Source: a virus (Duplodnaviria > Heunggongvirae > Uroviricota > Caudoviricetes). From it: 64,000 bases of DNA. Within the stretch, counting starts at the first letter, position 1. Each line of letters opens with the position of its first letter. The translations under genes and the position numbers were made by a program. The stretch covers positions 66,050 through 130,049 of the IMG/VR virus record IMGVR_UViG_3300028042_000002; one strand, written 5' to 3'. Of the stretch, positions 5,085 to 63,402 are shown piece after piece. Below the pieces are notes generated by a model. It saw only the letters and a list, made by a program, of their open reading frames with translations, was not told the DNA's origin and ran no database searches.

Positions 5085-5270
5085 ATGAATATTCCAGTTA
5101 AATTGAAAAAAAGTATTAAAGGTCGCCCGCGTATAGAAATTGATATTGATTTAGCAATAAAATATCTAAATGGTGGGTACAATCTTTCGAGTGTGGCGGA
5201 GGAGATGGGAATTGCAAAATCTACATTATGTTTGAAAGTTAAACAATATAAAGAAATCCATAAATCATAA
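5085..5270 (+). CDS. small HTH DNA-binding protein (module copy A)
   Basis: 'KGRPRIEIDIDLAIKYLNGGYNLSSVAEEMGIAKSTL' is a resolvase/IS630/AlpA-like HTH. Paralogs at 18316-18528 and 63163-63402. Confidence 0.6.
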   Translation: MNIPVKLKKSIKGRPRIEIDIDLAIKYLNGGYNLSSVAEEMGIAKSTLCLKVKQYKEIHKS

Positions 5271-5338
5271 ACATAAAAAAGCTAGAAAGGTAATTACATT
5301 TTACCAATCTAGCCAACATGTTCACATTAAATATTACA

Positions 5339-5655
5339 AGGCATCTATCGTAAGAGTCCCTACTTTTGCGAAAGCTCATTTTGGGCATCCCAGCCCAAGT
5401 TCGCGGCAAAAGCTTAACGGGACTAATTATAATCTTCGATGCCCCGATTCGTCCTGCGTCCGTGACGTCTTCGTACAAGTATCGTTTCACTCGATGAACT
5501 ACGACACCACTACCTCAAATGACCTTTACGGCGATGAGAGCTGTTTTTCACCTTCTTCGTCAGTTCACTCTCGTTCTCAACTACGAATGCGCTAAACAGC
5601 ATCGCCTATCGGGGACTAATCGCCTTCGTTTCACTCTCCATGGCGATCAGCGCAT
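5339..5655. other. GC-rich (about 50% GC) noncoding island; candidate structured RNA or origin with TTCACTC and CGGGACTAAT direct repeats
   Basis: Abrupt composition shift. Long imperfect hairpin (ggcatc..gatgcc, agtccc..gggact, cttttgc..gcaaaag). TTCACTC occurs three times. Confidence 0.45.
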
Positions 5656-7003
5656 GAACAAAACTTCTATTAAACATCTTCTTTTAAGCGAATTAAATAA
5701 ATATAAAACTCGTTTATCGGATGAACCATCATTATACATCAATAATACTATTTATAACAAGTTAAAAGTTGTGAATATTAATAATTTTAAGAAGTATTAC
5801 CCAAAATTAACCCGAGTTGAAATCACAAATTTATTATATCTTATTATAAATCATAACTTTATCCATTTAAAGCAAGATGATAAACAAGGTTATAATATCA
5901 TAAAAATTTATGAAGTTTCAGGAATAAACGTGCAAGTTGGCAGAAAGATATTTACTTCTAAATTATTTACCGAACTTTTAAAATTATTACTTGACAATGA
6001 AATTATTATCAAAGTTAAAAATTATCAAAGTAAGTCACACTCCAACCAATATAAATTAAATGATAATATTATTAGCAAGATGACCACATGCCAAGGTAAA
6101 ATTATTAAATTATCGCCATTCGTCCTAAAATATAAAATTAAATTTTGCACATTAAAAATAGTTAAAACTGTTAAAGATGATATATATCCATACAAATATT
6201 TATTATTAAGCACACTAAAAACTTTAAATACTGTCCAATTTCCAACCATTGAAGAAGTTGAAAAACGATTAGATGAGGCTGTTAAAAATGGTGAAAGTAA
6301 CAAAGGTAAAATATATAAAAATTATAATGATTATAGAAATCTTGTTGACAAATCTAAATATACAAACATTCAAAACATTAAAAAAGTGTTTTTATATTTA
6401 ACAACTGGATTGATATTTTCAAGGAGTGAAGAGTTTGGCAGAATTTATACATCATTTAATATGATACCAACTATCACTCGCAATATGTGTAAATTAAATA
6501 ATAATGAATTAGTTGGATTAGATTTTAATGCACTCCATCTTAATATTGCACAATCATTAGCAGTTAAACATTATGACCATGATATTAAAGATTATAATGA
6601 AATTACTCATGATAATATTGCATCCTATATGAAAATATCACGTCAAGAGGTCAAAATAGACAATTTAAGCCTACTTAACCGAAATTTGGAAGATGGGTAC
6701 GACTATAATAATAAACGTTGGGAAAAAGGCTTAATAGGAACTCCTACAGTAAATTACTTTTTAGAGTGCATCCCAGTTTTATATAATTATATTGTACAGA
6801 AAGGCGATAAAGGTATTACAAAATTTCTATTTAATATTGAAACTAAATTGATGGATAAAATTGCTATGAAATTGTTATATAGTGGTATTAATTTTATGTA
6901 TATTTTTGATGAGATAATGGTAGAGTCGAAGTATAAAATTAATGTTAGAAAGTTGATGCTGATGGAAGCTAAAAGAATGTGGATATTGGCAGGAGTTGGA
7001 TAA
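5654..7003 (+). CDS. large conserved protein of the 3-copy module (possible primase/replication-initiator component); start reset to MNKTS
   Basis: About 60% identity to the 61826-63166 ORF. The N-terminal extension in the ORF track lies in the GC island and is not conserved in the paralog. Confidence 0.55.
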   Translation: MNKTSIKHLLLSELNKYKTRLSDEPSLYINNTIYNKLKVVNINNFKKYYPKLTRVEITNLLYLIINHNFIHLKQDDKQGYNIIKIYEVSGINVQVGRKIFTSKLFTELLKLLLDNEIIIKVKNYQSKSHSNQYKLNDNIISKMTTCQGKIIKLSPFVLKYKIKFCTLKIVKTVKDDIYPYKYLLLSTLKTLNTVQFPTIEEVEKRLDEAVKNGESNKGKIYKNYNDYRNLVDKSKYTNIQNIKKVFLYLTTGLIFSRSEEFGRIYTSFNMIPTITRNMCKLNNNELVGLDFNALHLNIAQSLAVKHYDHDIKDYNEITHDNIASYMKISRQEVKIDNLSLLNRNLEDGYDYNNKRWEKGLIGTPTVNYFLECIPVLYNYIVQKGDKGITKFLFNIETKLMDKIAMKLLYSGINFMYIFDEIMVESKYKINVRKLMLMEAKRMWILAGVG

Positions 7004-9918: not shown

Positions 9919-9968
9919 AATATTTAATCCTGTTAGTTAGTTAGGCTTTATTGCTTAACTTGGATACT

Positions 9969-9996
9969 ATTATACTCATTTTTTAATACATGTCAA
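9969..9996 (-). promoter_or_regulatory. early sigma70 consensus promoter (TTGACA-16-TATAAT)
   Basis: Minus strand reads TTGACAtgtattaaaaaatgagTATAAT. Identical to the one at 13316-13343. Confidence 0.6.
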
Positions 9997-10070
9997 CTAA
10001 ATTATGAAATTAATTAAAGTTATTTTAATTATCTAATAATATCAACAACTTACAAACAGTCATATAATAA

Positions 10071-11419: not shown

Positions 11420-11471
11420 AATATTTATTCCTGTTAGTTAATTAGTTGTTTAAGTTGCTTCGATATAAAAG

Positions 11472-11499
11472 AGTATACTCCCATTTTCACTATTGTCTA
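11472..11499 (-). promoter_or_regulatory. early promoter (TAGACA-16-TATACT)
   Basis: Conserved cassette. Confidence 0.5.
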
Positions 11500-11621
11500 G
11501 TTATTTATTCAATTATTTTAAAATAAATTAATTATCTAATAATATCAACAAGTTACCAACTTAGTCATATAATAATATAAATATTAATAACCATCAAATC
11601 ACTTTATAATAATATAAAACT

Positions 11622-12650: not shown

Positions 12651-12801
12651 AATTTTTAATCCTGTTAGGTTGCGGTTAAAAAGTTAACTAATTTGCTTAA
12701 CTTGGATACTATTATACTCATATTTTAACTATTATCTAGTTATTTATTCAATTATTTTAAAATGAATTTAATTATTCAACAATATCAACAACTTACCCTC
12801 A

Positions 12802-18315: not shown

Positions 18316-18528
18316 GTGATAAAAATGGCTTTAGATGTTAATAAATTAGTAAAAAATATAAAAGGTGCAGGAGCTTATAAAGATGTTGATATGGTGGAGA
18401 TTATGGAGTTAAAGAAACAAGGTTACACATATTCAAGTATGGCAGAGCAATTAGGTATCACAAAAGTTACACTTTCTAGGAAAGTTGCAGAATATAAAAA
18501 AGAATTATTAAAACGTAAAGGAAATTAA
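18316..18528 (+). CDS. small HTH DNA-binding protein (module copy B)
   Basis: 'QGYTYSSMAEQLGITKVTLSRKVAEYKKE' is paralogous to the 5085 and 63163 proteins. Confidence 0.6.
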   Translation: MIKMALDVNKLVKNIKGAGAYKDVDMVEIMELKKQGYTYSSMAEQLGITKVTLSRKVAEYKKELLKRKGN

Positions 18529-18531
18529 AAC

Positions 18532-19725
18532 ATGATAAACCAATCAAATATGATAGATAAATCAGCATTAGAAATTTTTGAAATATTTTTAGATGATAAT
18601 TCACATAAAGCAGGTTATGAAAAATTCATTCATCCTGATGGAAATTATATTCCAATATCTGAAATACACGCAGAATTTGACGCATGGTGTTCCAAACTTG
18701 GAGTGTCTGCTAAAGTTTATACCAATAGAAAATTTAAACATACAATGGTGTTATACTACGTGAAATGGCTAAAGGATTATAAATTATATTTAAGTGAAAA
18801 ATTATCAAAATGTCCAATCTCAAACAATCAAACAGAGTGGAAAAAACTCCAAAAATTGACAGAATTTACAGATAATGACATCATCATTTATAAGGCGTTA
18901 ATATGGAAAATTAAAACCCAACTTATAACAAATAAACAAATCAAGATACAATTTCCAATGCCAGTATTATTCAGTACTAAACAAGGCTTGGGTAAATCAT
19001 ATTTTAATAAATTATTATGTGAACCATTAGGCGAACTTTCAATTGAACGTGATATTTCAGTTTTAAACGATGAAAATAATTCTAAATTATTTAAAGATAT
19101 GTTACTTATCAACTTTGATGAAATGGCTAGTCAAACTAAGGAAAGCTTAACAAACCTTAAGAGTATTTTAACTAAAGATGATATCCAATTTAGAGAAATT
19201 TATACAGCTAATCAGATTACAGTAAAAAAGATGTTTTGTAGTGTAGGTTCATCTAATAAATCATTACATGAAATTTTAAATGATACGACAGGCTCGCGTA
19301 GATTATGGCAAGTTAGTTTAATTAAATCAATATATAAGACTATTCATAGTATTGATTTTCTTGAACTGTATCGAGAAGTTGATCACAATAAACCATGTGA
19401 ACTAATGAATGATGAATGTTATACTAAAATAATGGATATTCAACAATCAACCCAGCGTAAAAAGGATATTGTTGAATATTGGATTGAAGCTTGGAATTGT
19501 AATATTAATTATGGTGATATGATAGAAGTTGATATTCCATTAAATAATAGTACATATACTTCTATGTATTTATATAAACATTTTGAAAATTGGTGTATAA
19601 TTAACAATGAAAAAGTATTATCACATAATAAATTTGGTAGAAGTGTTAAAAATTATTTATCAACTGTTTTTATTAAGCACCGTACAAGTAAATTTAAAGG
19701 TTACAAATTTATCACACCACAATAA
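18532..19725 (+). CDS. D5_N-like + VirE-family P-loop NTPase (P4-alpha-type primase-helicase C-terminal module)
   Basis: 'LYAEFDAWC' D5_N-like region. Walker A 'KQGLGKSYF', Walker B 'INFDEMAS', VirE signature 'NDTTGSRRLWQV'. Confidence 0.65.
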   Translation: MINQSNMIDKSALEIFEIFLDDNSHKAGYEKFIHPDGNYIPISEIHAEFDAWCSKLGVSAKVYTNRKFKHTMVLYYVKWLKDYKLYLSEKLSKCPISNNQTEWKKLQKLTEFTDNDIIIYKALIWKIKTQLITNKQIKIQFPMPVLFSTKQGLGKSYFNKLLCEPLGELSIERDISVLNDENNSKLFKDMLLINFDEMASQTKESLTNLKSILTKDDIQFREIYTANQITVKKMFCSVGSSNKSLHEILNDTTGSRRLWQVSLIKSIYKTIHSIDFLELYREVDHNKPCELMNDECYTKIMDIQQSTQRKKDIVEYWIEAWNCNINYGDMIEVDIPLNNSTYTSMYLYKHFENWCIINNEKVLSHNKFGRSVKNYLSTVFIKHRTSKFKGYKFITPQ

Positions 19726-24954: not shown

Positions 24955-25407
24955 ATGAAAATTTTAAAATACGTAGAAACTTCATTTAGAGGTAAACCAA
25001 GTTTCATCATTAAAATGAATGGAATTAAATATTTATCAAATGGTTGTGTATTTGTTGAATATAATAATAAAAATGTTAAGAAGTTAATTAATAAATATGA
25101 TTGTAGAAGTTTTATTGATGAATTAATGCAAAGTAAATCTATTAAATTTAAAAATTTAACAAATGGTCGTTATATGTTCTATGGTTGTACATTACCGGAC
25201 AATTTTAACCCTAATTTAGAAAAGTTAACATGTGGTTATTCGATGTTTGAAGGTTGCACATTACCTGACAATTTTAATCCTAATTTAGAAAATTTAACAG
25301 ATGGTCGTTATATGTTCTATGGTTGTACATTATCTGATAAATTTAACCCTAATTTAGAAAAGTTAACAAAAGGTCTTTTCATGTTTGAATGTTGTACACG
25401 TTATTAA
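24955..25407 (+). CDS. BspA-like leucine-rich-repeat (LRR_5-type) protein
   Basis: 3.5 tandem 23-aa repeats 'NLTNGRYMFYGCTLPDNFNPNLEKLT'. Confidence 0.5.
   Translation: MKILKYVETSFRGKPSFIIKMNGIKYLSNGCVFVEYNNKNVKKLINKYDCRSFIDELMQSKSIKFKNLTNGRYMFYGCTLPDNFNPNLEKLTCGYSMFEGCTLPDNFNPNLENLTDGRYMFYGCTLSDKFNPNLEKLTKGLFMFECCTRY
25153..25404 (+). repeat. 69-bp tandem repeat, about 3.6 copies (encodes LRR units)
   Basis: Near-identical DNA units visible directly in the sequence. Confidence 0.7.
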
Positions 25408-25430
25408 TTTATAATAATATAATTTTAATC

Positions 25431-25466
25431 AACCACTATTTAACTTTTAATAGTGGTTTTTTATTG
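25431..25466 (+). terminator. rho-independent terminator
   Basis: aaccactat-loop-atagtggtt followed by tttttt. Confidence 0.55.
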
Positions 25467-25527
25467 CCACAAATTTATTATAATGATAATATACATATTC
25501 ACTAATTAAAGGTAATAACATAATAAT

Positions 25528-26667
25528 ATGAACAATTTATATAATGGTTTAATGAAATTACAACATGATAATCCAGCATTTTATTACTCTGACCAAAATT
25601 ACAACGATAAAACATTAATTCGAACATTTAATTATAGACTAGCAACTTGGACAGATTTTCAACTTCCTTATGCGTTGGATAGTCGCGGAACTTCATTCAT
25701 TTTAAGAGATAATCAAAAACCTAAATTATTTTGCCGAGGGTATCAAAAGTTTTTTAATTTGGGTGAAGGTATTCCAAAAGACGAATTTATTAAAAATAAT
25801 AGAATAGTTTCAGTATTTGAAAAAGTTGACGGGAGTTTAATATCAGTTGGTATGATTGACGATAACTTAAAATTATTAGCTAAATCTAAATCAACAATTC
25901 ATTCAGACCATGCTATAACTGCACAATCAATTATTGATAATAATGTAGAATTACAACGATTTATTGCTAATAAGATTACTCGGGGATACACTCCACATTT
26001 TGAATTAGTTGGTAAAGATTTTAGAATAGTTTTGAATTATAAAGAAACTGAATTAATTTATTTAGGGTGCGTAAATAATCTTACAGGTGAATTAGTAGAA
26101 TTACCACCAATCAGAGGTTCATTTAAATATAATAGTTTTAAAATGGTTAAAGATTATTTATATACATGGAAAGATTTATTAGATATTCAAGCCAATCATC
26201 CAGCTAATATTGAGGGATTTGTAGTTAAAGTTGATGACGGTTCATTAGTTAAGGTAAAATTAAATAGTTATTGTCATATTCATCATTTAAAAGATAATAT
26301 TTATAATTCTAAAAATTTAGTTGCATTAATATTAGACAGAAAACTTGACGACCTCTATGATATTTTTAGTGATAATAATGAAGCATTGGCGCACATTAAA
26401 AACTGTGAAAAATTGATATCCAATCATTATAATAATTTAATCATAGAAATTAATAAATTAGCAAGTTCTTATATTGATGATTATAATTCAAATCGGAAAG
26501 AGTTTGCAATTAAGAACCACACCAATACAATATTTCATATAGTAATGAAAATAATTCATGTTAGAGATGATATACTTATTGAAAGTATGTTAACTGATTA
26601 CATTAAAAAACAATGTTCAACTAAAGATAAAGCGGATTTATATTTAAGAAAAATGATAGAATTATGA
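25528..26667 (+). CDS. rnlA: RNA ligase 1 (T4 Rnl1/gp63-like)
   Basis: Motif I 'KVDGSL', motifs IV/V 'EGFVVKVDDGSLVKVK'. Collinear similarity to T4 Rnl1 from the N-terminus ('LYNGLMKL...FYYSD'). Confidence 0.85.
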   Translation: MNNLYNGLMKLQHDNPAFYYSDQNYNDKTLIRTFNYRLATWTDFQLPYALDSRGTSFILRDNQKPKLFCRGYQKFFNLGEGIPKDEFIKNNRIVSVFEKVDGSLISVGMIDDNLKLLAKSKSTIHSDHAITAQSIIDNNVELQRFIANKITRGYTPHFELVGKDFRIVLNYKETELIYLGCVNNLTGELVELPPIRGSFKYNSFKMVKDYLYTWKDLLDIQANHPANIEGFVVKVDDGSLVKVKLNSYCHIHHLKDNIYNSKNLVALILDRKLDDLYDIFSDNNEALAHIKNCEKLISNHYNNLIIEINKLASSYIDDYNSNRKEFAIKNHTNTIFHIVMKIIHVRDDILIESMLTDYIKKQCSTKDKADLYLRKMIEL

Positions 26668-52509: not shown

Positions 52510-52830
52510 TTACTTTCCTAATTGTGGGATTAATTTTAAACTATTTTGTAAAGTATCAATCAGTTTACCTTGATTTACATCTGCATTATTAACACTTTTC
52601 ACACCTTGTACCGAACTTTTAAATGCACATTTTTCATTTAAATCTAATGTAGCAAAATCAACAGGTTTACCACTTGTTACACTAATTTCACATTTAAAAT
52701 CTTTATTAGAGTGTATAATTCTATAAGTTGATGCACCTGCTACAGATGATTGATTATCTCCACGAATTGTAGAAAATTGTGAACATGCTGATATCATAAA
52801 TAACGTTAATAATAATATAAAATATTTCAT
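52510..52830 (-). CDS. small lipoprotein encoded inside head-gene cluster
   Basis: Signal peptide with lipobox 'MISAC|S'. Conserved Cys pair. Confidence 0.5.
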   Translation of the reverse strand: MKYFILLLTLFMISACSQFSTIRGDNQSSVAGASTYRIIHSNKDFKCEISVTSGKPVDFATLDLNEKCAFKSSVQGVKSVNNADVNQGKLIDTLQNSLKLIPQLGK

Positions 52831-53456
52831 TTCATATCCACTTTATTGTTAAGTTTATTTATGATACTTTCAACACTATCATTAGGGTTCGATATAATAT
52901 TACATTCTTTACCATTGACACTTACACATAATTTAACACTTTTACCATACTTCTTAGTATTTAAAAATATCATATTAGGTTGGTCATTAATATATTGCTT
53001 CATTCCAATATCATAAAATTTTAAATTTGGTGGAGTGTAATCAACATCCATCATAGTCATCATTTCATTAATATTATTATCACCATTAATTCGGTCTAAA
53101 ACTACTCTAATATCAACAACTTTATTAACTTTAATATCTTTATCTTTATTGTTAACTTTCACGCAAAGATTATATACTCGACCATCTTTAACTGCCTTGA
53201 CAAATTTTAAACCTTTTAATTGGTTGATTATTTTCTTAAATTTATCACTTGTAATATCAATTAAAAATTTTTCATCACGACTATAAATATTAGCTTGCTT
53301 AGCATCAGATATTTTATAAAATGAAACCTTCTCTTGCATAATTTCATCAATATTTAAAGATGTTTTATAATTTTTAACTTTTTCATTAAGGTATTGTGAT
53401 ACTAACCCACTGAATTTACTAGGGTTTTTATTCTGAATATGTGTACTAAAAGTCAT
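52827..53456 (-). CDS. hypothetical head-module protein
   Basis: 209-aa ORF, coupled to the portal gene. Confidence 0.45.
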   Translation of the reverse strand: MTFSTHIQNKNPSKFSGLVSQYLNEKVKNYKTSLNIDEIMQEKVSFYKISDAKQANIYSRDEKFLIDITSDKFKKIINQLKGLKFVKAVKDGRVYNLCVKVNNKDKDIKVNKVVDIRVVLDRINGDNNINEMMTMMDVDYTPPNLKFYDIGMKQYINDQPNMIFLNTKKYGKSVKLCVSVNGKECNIISNPNDSVESIINKLNNKVDMK

Positions 53457-54999
53457 TATTAGGCTCTTCTATTTTAAATTGTGGGTTACTTTTTTCAGCT
53501 TTAATTAACTTATCTTCATGTTCAATTTCTATATCAGATTGTTTAAATATATTCCTTCGGATTGTGTCATAAGAATACAATGTTCCAATTACACCACTTT
53601 GAACGTACATTCCATATAATTCAATACGATCTTGAGCAATTTCAAGTTCTTTCAATTCTGAAAAATAATTATCTTTTAAGTATTTATAATTTATTAAATT
53701 TTCAATGCTATTCCACTCTGATAATGTGATTACATTTCTTAAAATTAATTGGGTTTTTAATAATTGGGTAAATAATGAATTAAATTTAATCCGTTTATGA
53801 ATAATAAATTTATTAAACCTTATTTCATCTCGTGAGATTTCACTACTTCTGCCAATATTAAATCCTGTACCAGTTTCAAACCGTGATAATGGTATATTTA
53901 ATGCACGATATAATTTATTTTTAAAATATTCAACATCGGTTAATTCTCCTAAAGCATCGCCACTTGGCAATGTTGAAACCTCTGTTCCACGTCCACCTTC
54001 TCGTCTAGGTAGCCAATAATCTTCTAATAATGATTGAAATTTAGACCTATTTTTAATTGCACCCGTATTAACATCATAACTAATATTAGATTTAAATTTA
54101 TCCATTACAGATTTAATGTATTGGTCAGCTTTACCGCTTTGCATTGAACCTACATCAACATAAAATATTCTACGTTCAGGTGCGCGTGAAACTCGATAAA
54201 TAATGATACTATCTTCCATCATTTTTAAATTATTATAAGGTTTAATTACTTTATATAATTCTGATAAATTCATATTACCATCGGGTGATAATAATCCACT
54301 CGTAACGTATGTTATTAATGATTTAGGAATTTTTAAAGTATGTGAATTTCCTTGCCTATAATTAGAATTTGTAATACCCTTACTTGAATATATATAATAT
54401 TCCTTGACATCCTTAACATTATACAAATCTAATTCAATATTTTTATTACTTTTATTAGATTTTATTTCCCTTACAGATAATATATTAAGTGGATTTACTT
54501 TAACCAATTTAATAATACCATTTTTAATATTTTTACTATCTATAACACTATGATACACCAACTTACCATCAACATACCATCTTTTAAATATTTCATTACC
54601 ATTCTGATTGAAATTTAATAATTTTAAAATTGTATCAAATTCTACTATTATTTTATCTTTAATATTATCACTAAGAGTTTCAATCTTATCTAAATTCAAT
54701 TCAACTAAATTATTATCCGAACTATCCATGATAATGGCTTCATTTGTAATTTCCTTTACTGCAATATCAATATCATGGTTTAACATCATATTTCGATAAG
54801 TATTAATTAATCCACTTTCATCTTTTGGAAGTTCATCTAAATCTATACTATAATCATTATAAAAGCTATTATTTCCACCATTATCAACAATCAATTCATG
54901 ACTATCATCTTCGGCGGATGGTGGTATAAAAGTTTCACCTTTTTCATCTTCAACTTTGAATATTTTGAATACATTGTTAAATATTTGAGATAATTCCAT
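53446..54999 (-). CDS. gp20: portal vertex protein (gp20-like)
   Basis: 'FKRWYVDGKLVYHSVID' and 'IIYRVSRAPERRIFYVDVG', 'DYWLPRREGGRGTEV' align to T4 gp20. Confidence 0.9.
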   Translation of the reverse strand: MELSQIFNNVFKIFKVEDEKGETFIPPSAEDDSHELIVDNGGNNSFYNDYSIDLDELPKDESGLINTYRNMMLNHDIDIAVKEITNEAIIMDSSDNNLVELNLDKIETLSDNIKDKIIVEFDTILKLLNFNQNGNEIFKRWYVDGKLVYHSVIDSKNIKNGIIKLVKVNPLNILSVREIKSNKSNKNIELDLYNVKDVKEYYIYSSKGITNSNYRQGNSHTLKIPKSLITYVTSGLLSPDGNMNLSELYKVIKPYNNLKMMEDSIIIYRVSRAPERRIFYVDVGSMQSGKADQYIKSVMDKFKSNISYDVNTGAIKNRSKFQSLLEDYWLPRREGGRGTEVSTLPSGDALGELTDVEYFKNKLYRALNIPLSRFETGTGFNIGRSSEISRDEIRFNKFIIHKRIKFNSLFTQLLKTQLILRNVITLSEWNSIENLINYKYLKDNYFSELKELEIAQDRIELYGMYVQSGVIGTLYSYDTIRRNIFKQSDIEIEHEDKLIKAEKSNPQFKIEEPNNDF

Positions 55000-56798: not shown

Positions 56799-57320
56799 CT
56801 ATTCTGAAATAGTATCACTAAACCAATAATTATATTCAAATGTTACTTGAAATTCTTCAACTGTATCATTTTCTGCGTATCCTAAGCTAATCTCACCAAC
56901 TTCTGTAGGAAAAGCATTTTTAATGGTATAAGTATATAAAACTTTTCCACCATCTCTATCAAGTTGTTCAACTATAATATCACTATAGTAATCATTGGGA
57001 TTTGTTGACCCTACATTACTTTCATGAGTATTCATCAATGCTGACCAACGTTCAAAAGATGACTTACTTACAAAATCTGTATCTTCATAAATTGTAACTG
57101 TCCATGGTTCAAAAGTTTTATCACCCGCAATTTTAATCTTACGTCCCATATATGATACATCTGCTACACCCATTGTTGAAGGTGGTAATGATGCGGCTTT
57201 ACACATAAATGATGTTTTTTGAGGATTATCCATAAATTTCGTAAATGAAATACGGTATAAATTTGGTCTAGCTCCGCCACCTTGGAAATTTGCAATAAAT
57301 TCATTAATTCCTATTGCCAT
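56799..57320 (-). CDS. gp19: tail tube protein (gp19-like)
   Basis: 'ARPNLYRISF', 'KIKIAGDKTFEPWTVTIYED', 'FPTEVGEISLGY' align to T4 gp19. Confidence 0.85.
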   Translation of the reverse strand: MAIGINEFIANFQGGGARPNLYRISFTKFMDNPQKTSFMCKAASLPPSTMGVADVSYMGRKIKIAGDKTFEPWTVTIYEDTDFVSKSSFERWSALMNTHESNVGSTNPNDYYSDIIVEQLDRDGGKVLYTYTIKNAFPTEVGEISLGYAENDTVEEFQVTFEYNYWFSDTISE

Positions 57321-57353: not shown

Positions 57354-59582
57354 TTAAATATTTTCTGACAATACGCCAATTACTTCACTAAATTCAACAT
57401 TGCCACCAACTGCCACAAAATTTAATTGAATATAATTAATTGAATAAACTGGTTTGATGTAAATATCACAAATAAATTCTGAATTTTGGATAACTTGTGG
57501 AGTGTTATTACTTTCATCACAAACCACTTTAAAATCACTAATTCCACGTCTACCTTGAACAGTGCGTAAAAATGGTTCAACTTGTGATACAAAAGATTGG
57601 CGAGTAAATCTATCATTAAATTCAAATAATTTATATTTAGCTGACTTTGCAATACTCTTTTCTAAAGTAATGAATAATCGTCTAATATTCAACTTTTGGA
57701 ATGCTGATGGACGAGCTAATAAAGTTTTATCACCAAGTAAAATTACGCCTTCACCAACTTCACTAATAATTGGATTGATACCATTTTTATAAAGGTTATC
57801 ACGTTGTCCTTTATTTGGATTATATGCCAATTTTACAACGTTTTTAATTTGCCCACGCTCATAACCAGCGGGAGACCACCAAGTATCACGATTAAAATCA
57901 GTATAAGCACATTTTCCAGCGACATCAGCATTTAATGGTAACCAGCGATATTTATCATTATATTTATCATATTGATATTTCCAATTGCAATCCATAAAAG
58001 CGTAACTTGATGAAATATTCACATCTTGTCTAGTGTTAATTACATTTGCATTAGCATTAACATCATTAATACCAACAATATCACTATATTTAGGTGAATA
58101 AAACATGACACAATCTTTACGAACTGTTGCAATATTATCATTTACATATTTAACAATAGTTTTAAAAGTGTTAACGGTTGCACCTTCACCAGCATCACCT
58201 ACAATTAATAATGATACGTCAACTACTTCACTATTTACAAATAAATCCCATCCACGAGTTAATTCATCTTCACCAACTGTTGCACTATTAATACCACCTG
58301 ATAAAGTTTTATCAAAGGTTGCGGATAATGATTTAAAATTTTGACCACTGGCAATTGTATTCCAAGGGTCATCAAAATTAGCATCAACTACAATTACAGT
58401 ACTTGCTAATGCTTGAGTACCATTGGCAGGTGCATCAATAGTAATTACAGTTGTTGCAGTAATATAATTTTGACCACTTGAACCGACTGCAACACTTTCA
58501 ACACTTTTACTAATTGTGGATGTTGCTGTAGCATCGCCATTACCCGAACCAGTTGTATCAATATTAGCAGTTGAATATCCTGTGCCAGCATTTGTAACAG
58601 TAATAGTATCAATTACTCCACCAGTTACCGAACCTACAGCCGCACTTGCACCATTTCCATCACCAATAATTACAATTAAATCACCAAGGGTGTAACCTGT
58701 ACCACCATCTGTAACAATAATACTATCAATAATACCAGTGGATGATAATGTTGCTGTCGCTGATGCAAGAGTTCCATCACCAGTAATTACCACATTTGGT
58801 ACACTTGTATAACCATCACCACCATTATCAACAGTAATATTAGTAATTGAACCACCTACAGCATAATCACCACTTTCAGGGTCAGTTAAATACCATACAT
58901 AATCTGATTGATTATTAATTACAGTTCCATAAAAGTTAGGAGTACCGTCTAATTCTTTACCATCCTTAGCTTTTGATAAATATGCAAACCGTTCTAATAC
59001 TGTATCAGGAATACCCGTAAATAATCCTAATTTATCCACAATTACAACATGAATTTCATCATTAGAACCATTTACACTTTTAACATATTCTGAACTACTA
59101 GGCGCACCATCAAATAAGTTTTCATAACTTTTATAATTAGGATTAGTTCCCCATGTTGCACTATCAATTAAGATAATTTCTAATGAATTACCTAAATTAC
59201 TTGGATATTTTGAGGCAAATATAGCAGTATTGCCAGCCGATGTACCAATAATTTGACTATGTGAAGTTTCATTTTTAATTAGTAAACCAGTTCCATCTAC
59301 TGTAGCATTTTTAGCCACCGTATCATCAACTACCCTAACTACATTGATATTATTTGAATAATCTAAAAAGTTTGATACGCTGAACCAGTCTCTATAATTT
59401 ACATCATTAGGTTTACCAAGTTTAAACTCTAATTGACTTTTATTATTAAGGTTGATATATTCTTCTACAGCTCCCCATTCAAATTGACCTACAAACGCTG
59501 CACCAGTTGTGGCTACATTTTGAATAAATCCACTAAAATCAAATTCACGAGTTACTACACCTGCTGAAAGTTGAAATCCCAT
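57354..59582 (-). CDS. gp18: tail sheath protein (gp18-like) with Gly-rich repeat insertion
   Basis: N- and C-terminal sheath domains. Central 'NGGxGY' repeat insertion. 742 aa. Confidence 0.8.
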   Translation of the reverse strand: MGFQLSAGVVTREFDFSGFIQNVATTGAAFVGQFEWGAVEEYINLNNKSQLEFKLGKPNDVNYRDWFSVSNFLDYSNNINVVRVVDDTVAKNATVDGTGLLIKNETSHSQIIGTSAGNTAIFASKYPSNLGNSLEIILIDSATWGTNPNYKSYENLFDGAPSSSEYVKSVNGSNDEIHVVIVDKLGLFTGIPDTVLERFAYLSKAKDGKELDGTPNFYGTVINNQSDYVWYLTDPESGDYAVGGSITNITVDNGGDGYTSVPNVVITGDGTLASATATLSSTGIIDSIIVTDGGTGYTLGDLIVIIGDGNGASAAVGSVTGGVIDTITVTNAGTGYSTANIDTTGSGNGDATATSTISKSVESVAVGSSGQNYITATTVITIDAPANGTQALASTVIVVDANFDDPWNTIASGQNFKSLSATFDKTLSGGINSATVGEDELTRGWDLFVNSEVVDVSLLIVGDAGEGATVNTFKTIVKYVNDNIATVRKDCVMFYSPKYSDIVGINDVNANANVINTRQDVNISSSYAFMDCNWKYQYDKYNDKYRWLPLNADVAGKCAYTDFNRDTWWSPAGYERGQIKNVVKLAYNPNKGQRDNLYKNGINPIISEVGEGVILLGDKTLLARPSAFQKLNIRRLFITLEKSIAKSAKYKLFEFNDRFTRQSFVSQVEPFLRTVQGRRGISDFKVVCDESNNTPQVIQNSEFICDIYIKPVYSINYIQLNFVAVGGNVEFSEVIGVLSENI

Positions 59583-59630: not shown

Positions 59631-59663
59631 AATTAGGGAATTATAATAAATTTTAGACAATAA

Positions 59664-59700
59664 AAAACCACTCTAATAATATTAACTAGAGTGGTTGCTA
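59664..59700 (-). terminator. rho-independent terminator (minus strand)
   Basis: aaccactct-loop-agagtggtt, with ttttttatt on the minus strand. Confidence 0.55.
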
Positions 59701-59728: not shown

Positions 59729-60592
59729 TTATTGATTTTGTTGATACATTCTCATTCTAGCACCACTATCATTAAAGGCTTCAAATGGCATAAACACTGT
59801 TGATTTATTTTCTGCCATTTTCTCTTGAACTTCTAATGCTCTTAATTTTAATAATGCTGGAGTAATACCTTCACCAATAATTTTATTACTATCTCGAACA
59901 GCCTTAGCCATAGTTAATTTAATTTGATAGTCGGCTTCTGCTAATAAACGTTCATTCTTTTTCTTAATTAATTCAATTTTGGCTTGACTTTCTTCTTTTT
60001 TAATAGCTAATTCACGTTCTTTAACCATATTAACAACATCTGTCACAACTTTAGGATATGAAATGTCACCTAAATTAATATCACTAATTTCAATTGGTGT
60101 ACCTTGTAATCCATCTTGAATACTTTTTCCAATTTCGGCAGATAACCTATTATAGTTTTTATGAATATCATTTACATTATATTGAGATAATACACTTCTA
60201 GTGCGGTTTCTAATGGTTGGTTTACCATAAATTCTATAAACATCATCAAAATCAACTGTATTAGTATCATGATCAACTTTAATATCATTGAACATACTAT
60301 CAATAATTTTATCAGTTGCTGAAATCCTACCTCTAAATCGTACATCAACATTTAATGTAAGTTTATCTGAAAGGATTACTTTTACAGTTTCTTTATATGT
60401 ATCAGTATTAACATTTAATAAAATTAGCTTATCTCGACCCCAAATTGTATATTTTCCACTTGGTAAAGTTTCGGGATTATATCCACTTGTTGTTAAAATT
60501 TTACCTTTGGTTGCAGGTGGTACAGTTTGAAATGAACAAGCTTGAATTAATGTAAAGGAAGTAATCAATACTACAATTTTAAATACTTTCAT
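59729..60592 (-). CDS. SPFH/band-7 domain lipoprotein
   Basis: Lipobox 'LIQAC|S'. C-terminal Ala/Glu-rich coiled-coil typical of HflK/C-prohibitin. Confidence 0.5.
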   Translation of the reverse strand: MKVFKIVVLITSFTLIQACSFQTVPPATKGKILTTSGYNPETLPSGKYTIWGRDKLILLNVNTDTYKETVKVILSDKLTLNVDVRFRGRISATDKIIDSMFNDIKVDHDTNTVDFDDVYRIYGKPTIRNRTRSVLSQYNVNDIHKNYNRLSAEIGKSIQDGLQGTPIEISDINLGDISYPKVVTDVVNMVKERELAIKKEESQAKIELIKKKNERLLAEADYQIKLTMAKAVRDSNKIIGEGITPALLKLRALEVQEKMAENKSTVFMPFEAFNDSGARMRMYQQNQ

Positions 60593-60875
60593 TTTTACTA
60601 CTCTCTTTTAGTTTATTTAATTCTGATTGTTGGAAATCATTAAAATCAATTTCAGGTACAATCACACGGGGGTTAATATTGTTAAATTTACTATCAATAT
60701 CTTCAAATCTACTCATATTAGATTGAACCACTTTTACAGGCATTGCAATTATTGAAATAATTCCAATAATTAAGCAAAATATACCCATTTTATTATATTT
60801 AATCCAAAATAAATATATTGTTAAACAAATTAAACCTAATGGTATTAATTGAAATATTGTAAATTCTATTGTCAT
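60579..60875 (-). CDS. small membrane protein (2 TM)
   Basis: Overlaps the SPFH gene start, suggesting an operon. Confidence 0.45.
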   Translation of the reverse strand: MTIEFTIFQLIPLGLICLTIYLFWIKYNKMGIFCLIIGIISIIAMPVKVVQSNMSRFEDIDSKFNNINPRVIVPEIDFNDFQQSELNKLKESSKNESI

Positions 60876-60902
60876 AAATAATCCTCACTTTCGTCTTCTC
60901 TA

Positions 60903-61031
60903 CTTACCTTTATCACATTGTTTATTATTTGAATTGCCATAAAAAGTACATTCAATATCATATTTAATATCGTAGCATGCTTGCAATGATAATAATATTA
61001 AAATCACCATTAACAATTTAATTCTCTTCAT
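60903..61031 (-). CDS. mini-lipoprotein (about 42 aa), not in ORF track
   Basis: 'MKRIKLLMVILILLSLQAC|Y' has a lipobox. Confidence 0.3.
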
Positions 61032-61256
61032 CATAATCAGAATTTAACGGTCTTGGTAATGGCATATCATTGATGATATTATCACATTCTTCAAATGGTA
61101 ATCCAGTTTCCAATAATCCATCTTTTAATAGTGAGTAAATATCATCACATTGGTTTTCATCTTCTTGCATTGTTTATTACCTTTAATTAATTTGTTTGAG
61201 TGATTTAATTATTCTATCATAAAGTATTATTTATTAGTTACAATAATCAACTATTT

Positions 61257-61802
61257 TTACATTTTAGATATAAATTTAAAGCATCTTAAACCGCCCTTTC
61301 GACATTTATTAAATTGACCACTTAAATAATTATTTAAATCTCGACTAAATTTAATATTACTAATAATTTTAATATTGCCAACTGTACACCCGTTTTCGAA
61401 ATGTTTATATAAGTTGGAGGATGAATAAATTTTATTAGGTTCTGCTTGAATAATTGGTTCACATTCACCATAATTTACATTATCAAGCCAATCTATATAC
61501 AATAATTCAACAATAGTCTTTTTACGTTGGGTTTCATAATTCTTTAATTCATCTTTATGTTCCTTTAACCATTCTTTATGATGTAAAACAAGTGTAAGTT
61601 TAAACTTAGTTTTATTATAATATTTACGGGGCACTTTAAGGTCAAAACACCACGCATCAAATTCTGCATAAAGTTCGGATTGAAAAATTTCATCATCATT
61701 TAAATCTATAAATTTTAAATATCCTGTTTTATATTCACGAAAATCCAAAAAAGTTTGAAATATTTCTAATGGTGTTTTATTTTCTATTGTTGTCATATTC
61801 AT
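61257..61802 (-). CDS. truncated D5_N-like fragment (paralog of N-terminus of 18532-19725; helicase part missing)
   Basis: 'LYAEFDAWCFDL' is shared with the paralog's 'IHAEFDAWCSKL'. Ends before the Walker A region. Confidence 0.5.
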   Translation of the reverse strand: MNMTTIENKTPLEIFQTFLDFREYKTGYLKFIDLNDDEIFQSELYAEFDAWCFDLKVPRKYYNKTKFKLTLVLHHKEWLKEHKDELKNYETQRKKTIVELLYIDWLDNVNYGECEPIIQAEPNKIYSSSNLYKHFENGCTVGNIKIISNIKFSRDLNNYLSGQFNKCRKGGLRCFKFISKM

Positions 61803-61825
61803 TAACCTATATTAATAATCATAAA

Positions 61826-63166
61826 TTAGCTTACATTGGATAAAATATTTAAATTTCTGCTACAGTTAATCATCGTATCATATAGGACTATTTTATTTTT
61901 AATTTCAACCATTAATTCATCAAATACATATAAAAAAGACATACCTGAATATAATAATACCTTGGCAATCTTATCCATTAATGAACTTTCATTATTAAAT
62001 AAAAATTTAGTAATACCTTTATTACCCATTTCCAATATATAATTATATAAAACTGGAATATGACGTTGAATATAATTCATAGTTGGAGTATTTAATGAGC
62101 CTTTCTCCCATCGTTCATTTTTATAATCATAACCATCATTTAAATTTCTATTAAGGATGCTAAGATTGTCTATTTTGACTGATTGGCGGGTAACATTCAT
62201 AGAGTTTGCAATATTATCATGAGTTATTTCATTATAATCATTTATATTATGGTTGTAGTGATTAACTGCCAAAGCTTGTGCGATATTAAGATGTAAACCA
62301 TTAAAATCTAATCCAACTAATTTATTATTGTTAAGTTTGCACATGTTACGGGCAATGGTTGGTAATAAATTAAATGATGTATAAATTCTGCCAAAGTCTT
62401 TACTAATTGAGAATATTAAATCATTGATTAAGTAGTTGAAAGTGTTTTTAGAGTTTTCAATATCAATATATTTACTTTTATCTTCCATTTTAATATATTG
62501 TTTATGGTTTAAATATACTCGACCCTTGTTAATTTCGCCATTCTCAACCGCTAATTCTAACCTTCTTTCAAATTCTTCAATAGTTGGAAATGTAATATCT
62601 CTGTAAGTATAAATACAACCTAATAATAAATGTAAATATTTGTACTCTGCGTTTGCAATAATATTATTTAATTTTAATATAGAGGATTTAGTTTTATATT
62701 TAGTTACTCGTGGTGATAATCTAATATCTTTATGTTTACAATTATAACGTTTACTTATGATATTATCATTTAATTTATATTTATTTGAACTTTTACCTAC
62801 TTTATACGATGCAGTCTTATAAATAATATTGTTATTGGTTAATAATTTTAATAATCGTGGAAATAATATCCTATTGAATATATTTTTACCATTTTCAAAA
62901 TTTATTCCAGCCTCTTCTGCAATAATAACATTTGTATCTATGCGTTCATCTCTTTTTACGCTAATAAAATTATTCTGAATTAATAGATACATCATATCGG
63001 TAACATCTTTCTTACTATATGAAGTGTTACCAATTTTAAATTCTTTAACTTTAATCTTAAATAATTCCCTATATATTGCATTATTAGCATATATGTAATT
63101 ATTTTTATCCAATGTCTTTTTATATTCAATTACAGCATTTTTTAATTTGTGTTTAATATCAATCAT
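61826..63166 (-). CDS. large conserved protein of the 3-copy module (paralog of 5654-7003)
   Basis: About 60% identity over about 330 aa ('GRIYTSFN..PTI.RNMCKLNNN.LVGLDFN.LHLNIAQ'). Confidence 0.6.
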   Translation of the reverse strand: MIDIKHKLKNAVIEYKKTLDKNNYIYANNAIYRELFKIKVKEFKIGNTSYSKKDVTDMMYLLIQNNFISVKRDERIDTNVIIAEEAGINFENGKNIFNRILFPRLLKLLTNNNIIYKTASYKVGKSSNKYKLNDNIISKRYNCKHKDIRLSPRVTKYKTKSSILKLNNIIANAEYKYLHLLLGCIYTYRDITFPTIEEFERRLELAVENGEINKGRVYLNHKQYIKMEDKSKYIDIENSKNTFNYLINDLIFSISKDFGRIYTSFNLLPTIARNMCKLNNNKLVGLDFNGLHLNIAQALAVNHYNHNINDYNEITHDNIANSMNVTRQSVKIDNLSILNRNLNDGYDYKNERWEKGSLNTPTMNYIQRHIPVLYNYILEMGNKGITKFLFNNESSLMDKIAKVLLYSGMSFLYVFDELMVEIKNKIVLYDTMINCSRNLNILSNVS

Positions 63167-63402
63167 TTTTTTAATTTTCCTAAATTTGGTTTCTTTGCTT
63201 TCATTGTTCTTTTTGGTTTTAAATTATGTTCCTTTCTATACGCATGAACCCTCTTATATAACGTGCATTTATTTACACCTAATGCATCGGCAATACTTTC
63301 ATGAGTATATCCTTCGTCCTTCAATTTCATAACCAATTCAATATCAATAACAACACCCCATGCAGTTTGTTTTAATTTACTTCTATCTAAATCCGAATTC
63401 AT
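63163..63402 (-). CDS. small HTH DNA-binding protein (module copy C)
   Basis: 'EGYTHESIADALGVNKCTLYKRVHAYRKE' is paralogous to the other two HTH proteins. Confidence 0.6.
   Translation of the reverse strand: MNSDLDRSKLKQTAWGVVIDIELVMKLKDEGYTHESIADALGVNKCTLYKRVHAYRKEHNLKPKRTMKAKKPNLGKLKK

Follow-up and report, generated by a model that had tools for sequence, protein, structure and literature searches.

The stretch of phage DNA analysed here (64,000 nt, hereafter the window; positions 66,050–130,049 of IMG/VR virus record IMGVR_UViG_3300028042_000002) contains four open reading frames (ORFs) arranged head-to-tail on the minus strand, with the tail sheath and tail tube genes on one side and a repeated module encoding a helix-turn-helix (HTH) protein and proteins of 446 and 181 aa on the other. 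In the order of transcription, these ORFs specify a small acidic protein (50 aa; 61018–61170), a mini-lipoprotein (44 aa; 60900–61034), a protein with two transmembrane (TM) helices, referred to here as the hairpin partner (98 aa; 60579–60875), and an SPFH/Band-7 lipoprotein (287 aa; 59729–60592). The last two genes share a 14-nt overlap (60579–60592, minus strand), which includes the stop of the partner gene and the start of the SPFH gene and probably reflects translational coupling. A sequence-only reading had described the four ORFs as one membrane-associated operon and as a candidate system for superinfection exclusion or envelope remodelling. The ORFs, their location between tail genes and a repeated module, and the overlap of the SPFH gene with a gene for a small 2-TM protein were all found as described. 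Its end coordinate of 61171 is one base too far, and the two small ORFs, which it placed after the others, precede the partner and SPFH genes when read in the direction of transcription. As described below, the conserved unit is the pair of hairpin partner and SPFH genes, a two-gene accessory cassette of large phages of Gram-negative bacteria from groups known as virulent; the four-gene claim is thus reduced to a two-gene core, and the two orphan small genes are marked as lineage-specific.

The SPFH lipoprotein and its hairpin partner

Judged by its profile matches, the SPFH gene product clearly belongs both to the SPFH superfamily and to PHROG 200, a family of phage proteins. Residues 24–207 matched Pfam Band_7 (PF01145) with an E-value of 1.6e-16 (61.3 bits, compared with a cut-off of 23.6), and residues 2–277 matched positions 82–351 (of 379) of the PHROG 200 'lipoprotein' profile with an E-value of 1e-40. 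Homologues were identified by tblastn in 127 phage records at identities of 18–46%, and in 125 phage records the alignment spans at least 80% of the query. The ~300-kb Pseudomonas jumbo phages PA1C, Psa21, and RVTF4, the Erwinia phages RisingSun and Joad, Klebsiella phage Miami, pf16, and the PAK_P3/KPP10 group share 39–46% identity with the window protein, and Acidovorax phage ACP17, T5-like Aeromonas and Vibrio phages, and KVP40-like Vibrio phages share 18–28%. In addition, ~295 metagenomic homologues were detected at E<=1e-10, and the nearest relatives, with up to 73% identity, are all metagenomic.

The protein consists of a signal peptide, a lipobox (IQA/C19), an SPFH domain (approximately residues 21–178), a 60-residue helix (181–240), a further helix (245–261), and a C-terminus with a conserved FMPxEA motif. 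The lipobox cysteine, Cys19, is invariant in an alignment of 21 diverse homologues, and a [GAS]C lipobox is present in 58 of 59 distinct sequences, the lone exception being truncated at the N-terminus. In the C-terminal motif, F267 and P269 are nearly invariant, also in the distant clade. When a signal-plus-lipobox filter was run over the 486 ATG-started ORF candidates of the window, only three loci passed, namely the SPFH gene, the mini-lipoprotein ORF, and a 106-aa ORF at 52510–52830; the lipoboxes are therefore not background noise, and both of those named in the sequence-only reading (IQAC at Cys19 and LQAC at Cys20 of the mini-lipoprotein) can be regarded as real.

The AlphaFold2 (AF2) monomer model of the SPFH protein (pLDDT 80) contains a beta-rich SPFH domain, whose first strand starts 2 residues past the lipobox cysteine, followed by the 60-residue helix, the second helix, and a low-confidence C-terminus holding the FMPxEA motif. 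Foldseek aligned almost the whole chain of this model with subunits of the solved prohibitin, HflK/C, stomatin, erlin, QmcA–YbbJ, and flotillin assemblies (probability 1.00; 257–298 aligned columns; E-values down to 4e-14). The SPFH domain assignment made earlier is thus borne out by both profile searches and structural comparison. The predicted model has the whole architecture of cage-forming SPFH proteins, which, together with the conserved C-terminal motif, suggests assembly into a ring or cage.

Because HflC is the best match in the PDB by sequence (E = 6e-5) and the best match in NCBIfam, and HflK/C cages, which face the periplasm, are among the top structural matches, the protein might be regarded as an HflK/C mimic whose ring, acting from the periplasm, captures or displaces FtsH or a different inner-membrane protease of the host, thereby altering the turnover of membrane or regulatory proteins. 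The HflC equivalog score is, however, far under the cut-off (24.7 versus 427 bits; TIGR01932, 21.9 versus 134.4), a single SPFH gene is present rather than a K/C pair, and the protein has a lipid anchor in place of a TM helix. Moreover, prohibitin and stomatin match equally well, and the resemblance is therefore generic to the fold. We consider this mimicry quite unlikely.

The hairpin partner was assigned from its ORF, which is preceded by a GAGGA ribosome-binding site (60886–60882), from its family of homologues, and from its adjacency to the SPFH gene. No Pfam domain was detected in the window partner, and a word-indexed protein search with the 98-aa sequence retrieved only the sequence itself. 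An exhaustive HMMER search yielded 19 further cluster representatives of 85–109 aa that align over nearly their full length at E<=1e-3, after one local match to a 928-aa protein was set aside. The partners at all testable loci have a common layout, with ~95–130 aa, two hydrophobic helices, a basic loop, and a hydrophilic tail of 50–65 aa; in the window partner, the tail contains the conserved motif PVK.TQ.N...E...KF..IP.KV and a C-terminal helix. Over 36 partners, the loop contains on average 3.75 K/R residues, compared with 0.11 at the N-terminus. According to the positive-inside rule, the K-rich loop is therefore predicted to be cytoplasmic and both termini periplasmic, which would place the tail in the same compartment as the SPFH domain. 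The AF2 monomer model of the partner shows a TM hairpin, a conserved extended segment, and the C-terminal helix, and has no beta-barrel.

Two known identities were considered for the partner. It is not an NfeD protein, as neither the window partner nor 29 partners matched NfeD (PF01957) at E<=1 and the AF2 model contains no OB-fold or beta-barrel. Nor does it fit a class II holin, as its predicted topology (loop in, termini out) is the opposite of that of such holins and no PHROG holin match was obtained.

Recurrence of the pair and status of the small upstream ORFs

A hairpin partner gene was found beside the SPFH lipoprotein gene in 28 of 28 testable independent loci, which span T4-like, T5-like, jumbo, PAK_P3-like, and metagenomic phages (locus L020, which is cut by a contig end, was left unscored). 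It should be noted that the adjacent 2-TM gene is a criterion proposed here and lies outside the published definition of PHROG 200. The partner gene is directly adjacent in 27 of the 28 loci; in the remaining one, Boevelstad, the two are separated by a single gene. The partner is located upstream of the SPFH gene in the close clade, i.e. in phages RVTF4, pf16, Ab03, RisingSun, and PA1C, in the IMG/VR loci L005–L007 and L022–L030, in the metagenome loci L017, L019, and L021, and in contigs of metagenome-assembled genomes (MAGs; L032 and L034), and in the distant clade (ACP17, AhSzq-1, 4L372XY, VspSw_1, nt-1, and 6E35.1a) it is located downstream. Overlaps of 4–17 nt between the two genes are frequent in the close clade and were found at eight loci (L004, L005, L016, L017, L019, L021, L037, and L038). 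In the reverse look-up, partner homologues found by sequence were located directly upstream of Band_7 lipoprotein genes in all three cases.

The flanks of the pair are unrelated between loci and include sheath, CCA/polyA polymerase, RNA ligase, PRPP synthetase-like, and baseplate genes as well as a pilin-like ORF. These differing flanks indicate that the adjacency of the two genes has been selected for and not merely inherited. The same cassette is present in myoviruses and T5-like siphoviruses, and its occurrence in N4-like podoviruses has been reported, but its distribution across the sampled phage groups is patchy and accessory-like, and it is absent from many related phages.

Two further observations concern individual loci. 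The only genome hits for the cassette were MAG contigs, namely L034 (CP070728.1, the 'chromosome' of a Planctomycetota MAG), L032 (a Colwellia MAG), and L033 (a Tenebribacter MAG); these contigs probably either derive from phages and were placed in the MAGs by binning, or represent prophage-like regions, and one MAG contig with the cassette is identical to an IMG/VR viral contig. The pilin-like ORF (56 aa, type IV pilin-like with an N_methyl motif) lies directly 3' of the SPFH gene in the 71%-identical relative (L017, 2045–2215) and was also found in L018 (2821–2991). In Aeromonas phage 44RR, an ORF with an N-methylation motif (ORF097c) is numbered next to the SPFH ORF (ORF098c).

The two small ORFs upstream of the pair show a different pattern. 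The acidic ORF has no TM segment or signal peptide, and its codon usage score is gene-like (0.65 bits/codon, exceeding all 143 spurious ORFs). The mini-lipoprotein has a borderline score of 0.28, which is near that of the validated 2-TM gene (0.34); its predicted mature peptide consists of 25 aa starting from the lipidated Cys20 and contains two further cysteines. The two ORFs overlap by 17 nt, and no clear ribosome-binding site was found for the mini-lipoprotein ORF. In the closest relatives with enough flanking sequence (L017, L019, L021, and L005), both ORFs are absent upstream of the pair, and at loci with 55–71% SPFH identity unrelated genes occupy this position. Homologues of either ORF were not detected by a concatenated-query search or by tblastn against phages at E<=10, and a pattern scan of IMG/VR, which covered only the acidic ORF, identified no homologues of it. 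The two ORFs were also considered as a part of the neighbouring repeated module, which was rejected because no paralogues are present at the other module copies or elsewhere in the window.

These data bear on the earlier proposal that the acidic protein, the mini-lipoprotein, the hairpin partner, and the SPFH protein constitute one functional system, specific in this case to the phage lineage of the window. The shared strand, the tight packing with overlaps, the single terminator downstream, the genuine-looking lipobox of the mini-lipoprotein, and the gene-like codon usage of the acidic ORF are in line with such a system, and other phages, too, have small ORFs for secreted or membrane proteins next to the cassette (the pilin-like ORF of L017, and ORFs in L022 and L024). 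However, only the 2-TM and SPFH genes recur, whereas relatives with 55–71% SPFH identity have neither of the small ORFs next to the cassette, both ORFs lack homologues in the searches made, and the mini-lipoprotein lacks a clear ribosome-binding site. A four-ORF system is therefore highly improbable. Both small ORFs probably represent genuine, co-transcribed genes specific to the lineage, and are best treated as neighbours outside the conserved cassette.

Transcription signals and surroundings of the cassette

An intrinsic terminator with a 12-bp stem, a 7-nt loop, and a T-run (59696–59666, minus strand) closely follows the SPFH gene. Within the run of four ORFs no terminator was detected, and their co-transcription is therefore plausible. 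Upstream of the acidic ORF, a candidate sigma-70-type promoter (TTGTAA-16-TATGAT; 61216–61243, minus strand) is a weak consensus match, with 9 of 12 positions. In this AT-rich region, promoter-like sites number 30 where 22 would be expected, which is no clear enrichment, and the T4 late-promoter motif TATAAATA is not enriched in the AT-rich window (43 found and 49 expected); the copy of the latter that precedes the sheath gene is therefore weak evidence. The terminator and ~45 nt following it recur before the RNA ligase gene (25528). The two copies, each consisting of the hairpin and then a conserved 'TTTTTTATTG.C..AAATTTATTATAAT' stretch, are located at 59636–59700 on the minus strand, between the SPFH and sheath genes, and at 25425–25490 on the plus strand, before the T4-type RNA ligase gene (25528–26667). 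This element looks like a reusable terminator-promoter unit.

The window is very AT-rich, with a GC content of 22–32% (~25%), and encodes T4-type virion proteins, including the tail sheath (57354–59582), the tail tube (56799–57320), and the portal protein (53446–54999), all on the minus strand. The identity of its virion proteins to those of cultured phages is at most ~46%; the sheath is closest to those of T4-like phages of Xanthomonas, Acidovorax, and Stenotrophomonas, and the portal protein to those of cyanomyoviruses. The exact SPFH protein of the window is also present on a 58.6-kb ENA metagenome contig, and the longest contig in the cluster of this protein is 130 kb. On the basis of the virion protein similarities and the metagenomic contig matches, the window belongs to an uncultured T4-like myovirus of marine type. 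No tRNA genes, which might have hinted at the host, were found in the window.

The repeated module upstream of the acidic ORF (61257–63402, minus strand) consists of 181-, 446-, and 79-aa (HTH) ORFs, and paralogous regions are present on the plus strand at 18385–19725 and 5100–7003. The HTH ORF has paralogues at 18385–18504 and 5100–5261, and the 446-aa ORF is 54% identical to an ORF at 5519–7003. The 181-aa ORF matches only aa 1–83 and ~aa 306–395 of a 397-aa VapE/D5-like ORF (18532–19725), as though the central NTPase domain of the latter were missing. A family of intergenic repeats of ~66 nt (1883–1948, 2503–2568, 9947–10012, 11450–11515, and 12689–12754) carries TTGACA-N17-TATAAT on the opposite strand and likely provides strong early promoters. 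In addition, a 69-nt unit is repeated three times in tandem at 25143–25398 within a 150-aa ORF (24955–25407). The third locus that passed the lipobox filter, the 106-aa ORF on the minus strand (52510–52830), has a clear lipoprotein signal (MKYFILLLTLFMISAC), lies amid genes of the head/neck region, and belongs to no Pfam family.

Proposed role and comparison with known systems

The expression of a homologous cassette has been measured in phage PAK_P3 by RNA-seq (PMC4933390, S5 Table). The SPFH gene, gp041, had a mean of 25,101 normalised counts, ~10–17 times the level of its four nearest neighbours (gp039, gp040, gp042, and gp043), and was high at both 3.5 and 13 min, with no significant change between these times (log2 fold change, −0.51). 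The partner gene, gp040, was expressed below gp041 and likewise without temporal bias (PMC4933390). In the Vibrio phages nt-1 and 6E35.1a, the cassette is located antiparallel among baseplate genes, with a conserved promoter-like site (TTGACA-N17-TA(A/C)TAT) directly upstream. These data, i.e. the measurements for the PAK_P3 homologue and the promoter motifs in the Vibrio phages, suggest early and continuous expression of the cassette.

We consider it somewhat probable that the cassette comprises a periplasm-facing SPFH ring or cage and a hairpin partner that together organise a membrane patch in the infected cell. The SPFH protein (59729–60592) would be exported and lipid-modified at Cys19, so that its SPFH domain would lie directly on the periplasmic face of a membrane, where it may oligomerise into a ring or cage fencing off a membrane patch in the manner of HflK/C, prohibitin, stomatin, and QmcA. 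The hairpin protein (60579–60875), whose gene is probably coupled in translation to the SPFH gene, would be inserted in the inner membrane with its basic loop on the cytoplasmic side; the conserved periplasmic tail, which is extended for the most part, would most likely dock on the SPFH protein, and the hairpin would be either the integral-membrane anchor of the cage or its enclosed client. The cassette would be expressed early and throughout infection, and we favour a role in which the pair would stabilise a membrane microdomain or sequester membrane proteins and thereby condition or insulate the infected cell's envelope. The periplasmic topology and the cage-type SPFH fold are in keeping with an envelope-associated role or with the envelope remodelling suggested in the sequence-only reading, and we do not think that the cassette is a component of the virion or of lysis.

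Several observations weigh against this model. The fold follows the lipidated cysteine without a linker, and the partner is predicted to lie in the inner membrane, both of which favour an inner-membrane location of the SPFH protein. At position +2 after the cysteine, however, 55 of 58 sequences have Ser or Gly and a single one has Asp; by the sorting rule of E. coli, such a lipoprotein would be moved to the outer membrane, i.e. to a membrane other than that of the partner. Profile–profile comparison of the close-clade and distant-clade partners gave no support for homology (hhalign probability, 12%), and the two groups of partners, which have the same architecture, may be analogous rather than homologous. 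SPFH proteins of Erwinia jumbo phages have been detected by mass spectrometry in crude lysate and virion preparations (PMC6034870, PMC7760394), and phage SPFH proteins may thus be associated with virions. Genome papers from 2020 and 2026 describe the function of phage SPFH proteins as poorly understood or unclear (PMC7760394, PMC13239085).

The model can be extended to a hitherto unrecognised, widely shared phage device that builds a cage on the periplasmic side of an envelope patch and would be a phage-encoded organiser of membrane microdomains with an anti-defence or exclusion role, in one version with the inner-membrane hairpin bridged to an SPFH ring anchored in the outer membrane. Such a cage would shield the infected cell from DNA injection by later phages, from membrane-disrupting effectors of abortive infection, or from envelope-sensing defences, but we regard this extension as a whole, whichever version is taken, as unlikely.

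Under the proposal of superinfection exclusion, the SPFH lipoprotein and its partner would block DNA entry or receptor use by later phages, as T4 Imm and Sp and T5 Llp do. Virulent phages are known to exclude other phages by means of small membrane proteins or lipoproteins; the predicted location of the pair in the periplasm and inner membrane, its early and continuous expression, and its patchy, accessory-like distribution over the sampled phage groups would all fit such a function. However, neither the four ORFs nor 29 partners matched an exclusion family of Pfam or PHROG (T4 Imm, P22 gp17, etc.), and no matches to the PADLOC defence models were obtained. Furthermore, the cassette is shared by myoviruses, T5-like siphoviruses, and reportedly N4-like podoviruses, whose entry machines are very different, which argues for a more general role. 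Exclusion is therefore a doubtful explanation of the pair. A 'superinfection exclusion protein' annotated beside the SPFH gene of phage PhiSH19 was examined as a lead and rejected; it is a soluble P22 gp17-type protein encoded 205 nt from the SPFH gene and is unrelated to the partner.

A role in lysis, as a spanin-like link across the envelope or a holin/antiholin-type pair that sets the timing of lysis, is very unlikely. The overlap of genes for an inner-membrane protein and a lipoprotein recalls Rz/Rz1, the Ser or Gly at +2 would, by the E. coli rule, make the lipoprotein an outer-membrane one, and the small 2-TM partner with its charged tail is holin-like. In contrast, PHROG and Pfam yielded no spanin or holin matches, the predicted topology of the partner is the reverse of that of class II holins, expression of the PAK_P3 homologue is high as early as 3.5 min, and the cassette is missing from many related phages, unlike an essential lysis function. 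Inner-membrane spanins have one TM helix and a long coiled coil, and outer-membrane spanins are small, whereas the partner has two TM helices and the SPFH lipoprotein consists of 287 aa; the identification of the pair as a two-component spanin was rejected on these grounds and on the lack of PHROG spanin matches.

The periplasm-facing cage with its hairpin partner, which we prefer, can be compared with several known systems. T4 Imm and Sp and T5 Llp are membrane proteins or lipoproteins that virulent phages express early and whose site of action is the envelope; the pair shares no sequence or profile similarity with them, and they are small single proteins rather than SPFH scaffolds. The pair resembles the SPFH–NfeD operons (E. 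coli QmcA–YbbJ, PDB 8z5g; Pyrococcus PH1511–PH1510) in the pairing and co-transcription of an SPFH gene with a gene for a small multi-TM protein, but the phage partner has no NfeD domain or OB-fold, and the phage SPFH protein is predicted to be exported, whereas QmcA faces the cytoplasm. HflK/HflC, the modulator cage of E. coli FtsH (PDB 7vhp/7vhq/7wi3), is similar in its periplasm-facing orientation, SPFH domain, long helices, and C-terminal segment, and differs in that the phage protein is lipid-anchored without an N-terminal TM helix and that the single SPFH gene is accompanied by a gene for a non-SPFH hairpin protein. The pair is thus not an HflK/C equivalog, an SPFH–NfeD pair, a spanin pair, or a known exclusion protein.

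Among phages, the Vi01-like (Kuttervirus) Salmonella phage PhiSH19 also encodes a Band_7 lipoprotein (AER70219; lipobox LLSGC), and an unannotated 72-aa 2-TM ORF with a very basic loop (JN126049, locus L035, 1432–1650, minus strand) has a stop that overlaps the SPFH start. Unlike the window pair, the PhiSH19 lipoprotein consists of 263 aa and shows no BLASTP similarity to the window protein, and its hairpin protein has no periplasmic tail. The closest counterparts are the PHROG 200 lipoproteins (RisingSun gp131, PAK_P3 gp041, pf16 gp165, and the 'SPFH-domain membrane protein' of Miami), to which the window protein can be aligned over the full length with 39–46% identity and with which it shares the lipobox cysteine, the length, the C-terminal motif, and the adjacent hairpin-protein gene. 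The window differs from the cultured members in its ~25% GC, uncultured T4-like genome and in the position of the cassette adjoining the tail sheath gene. The presence of SPFH/Band-7 genes in phages was noted as early as 2006 (PMC1524935), and many GenBank records already label the PHROG 200 family as 'SPFH domain/band 7' or 'lipoprotein'. In the literature searched, we found no assignment of a function to the phage SPFH family and did not meet the constant pairing of its genes with a hairpin-protein gene. This pairing is a useful added detail and not a new kind of system; by its recurrence in T4-like, T5-like, jumbo, PAK_P3-like, and even Vi01-like phages, it turns a vague annotation into a defined two-gene module.

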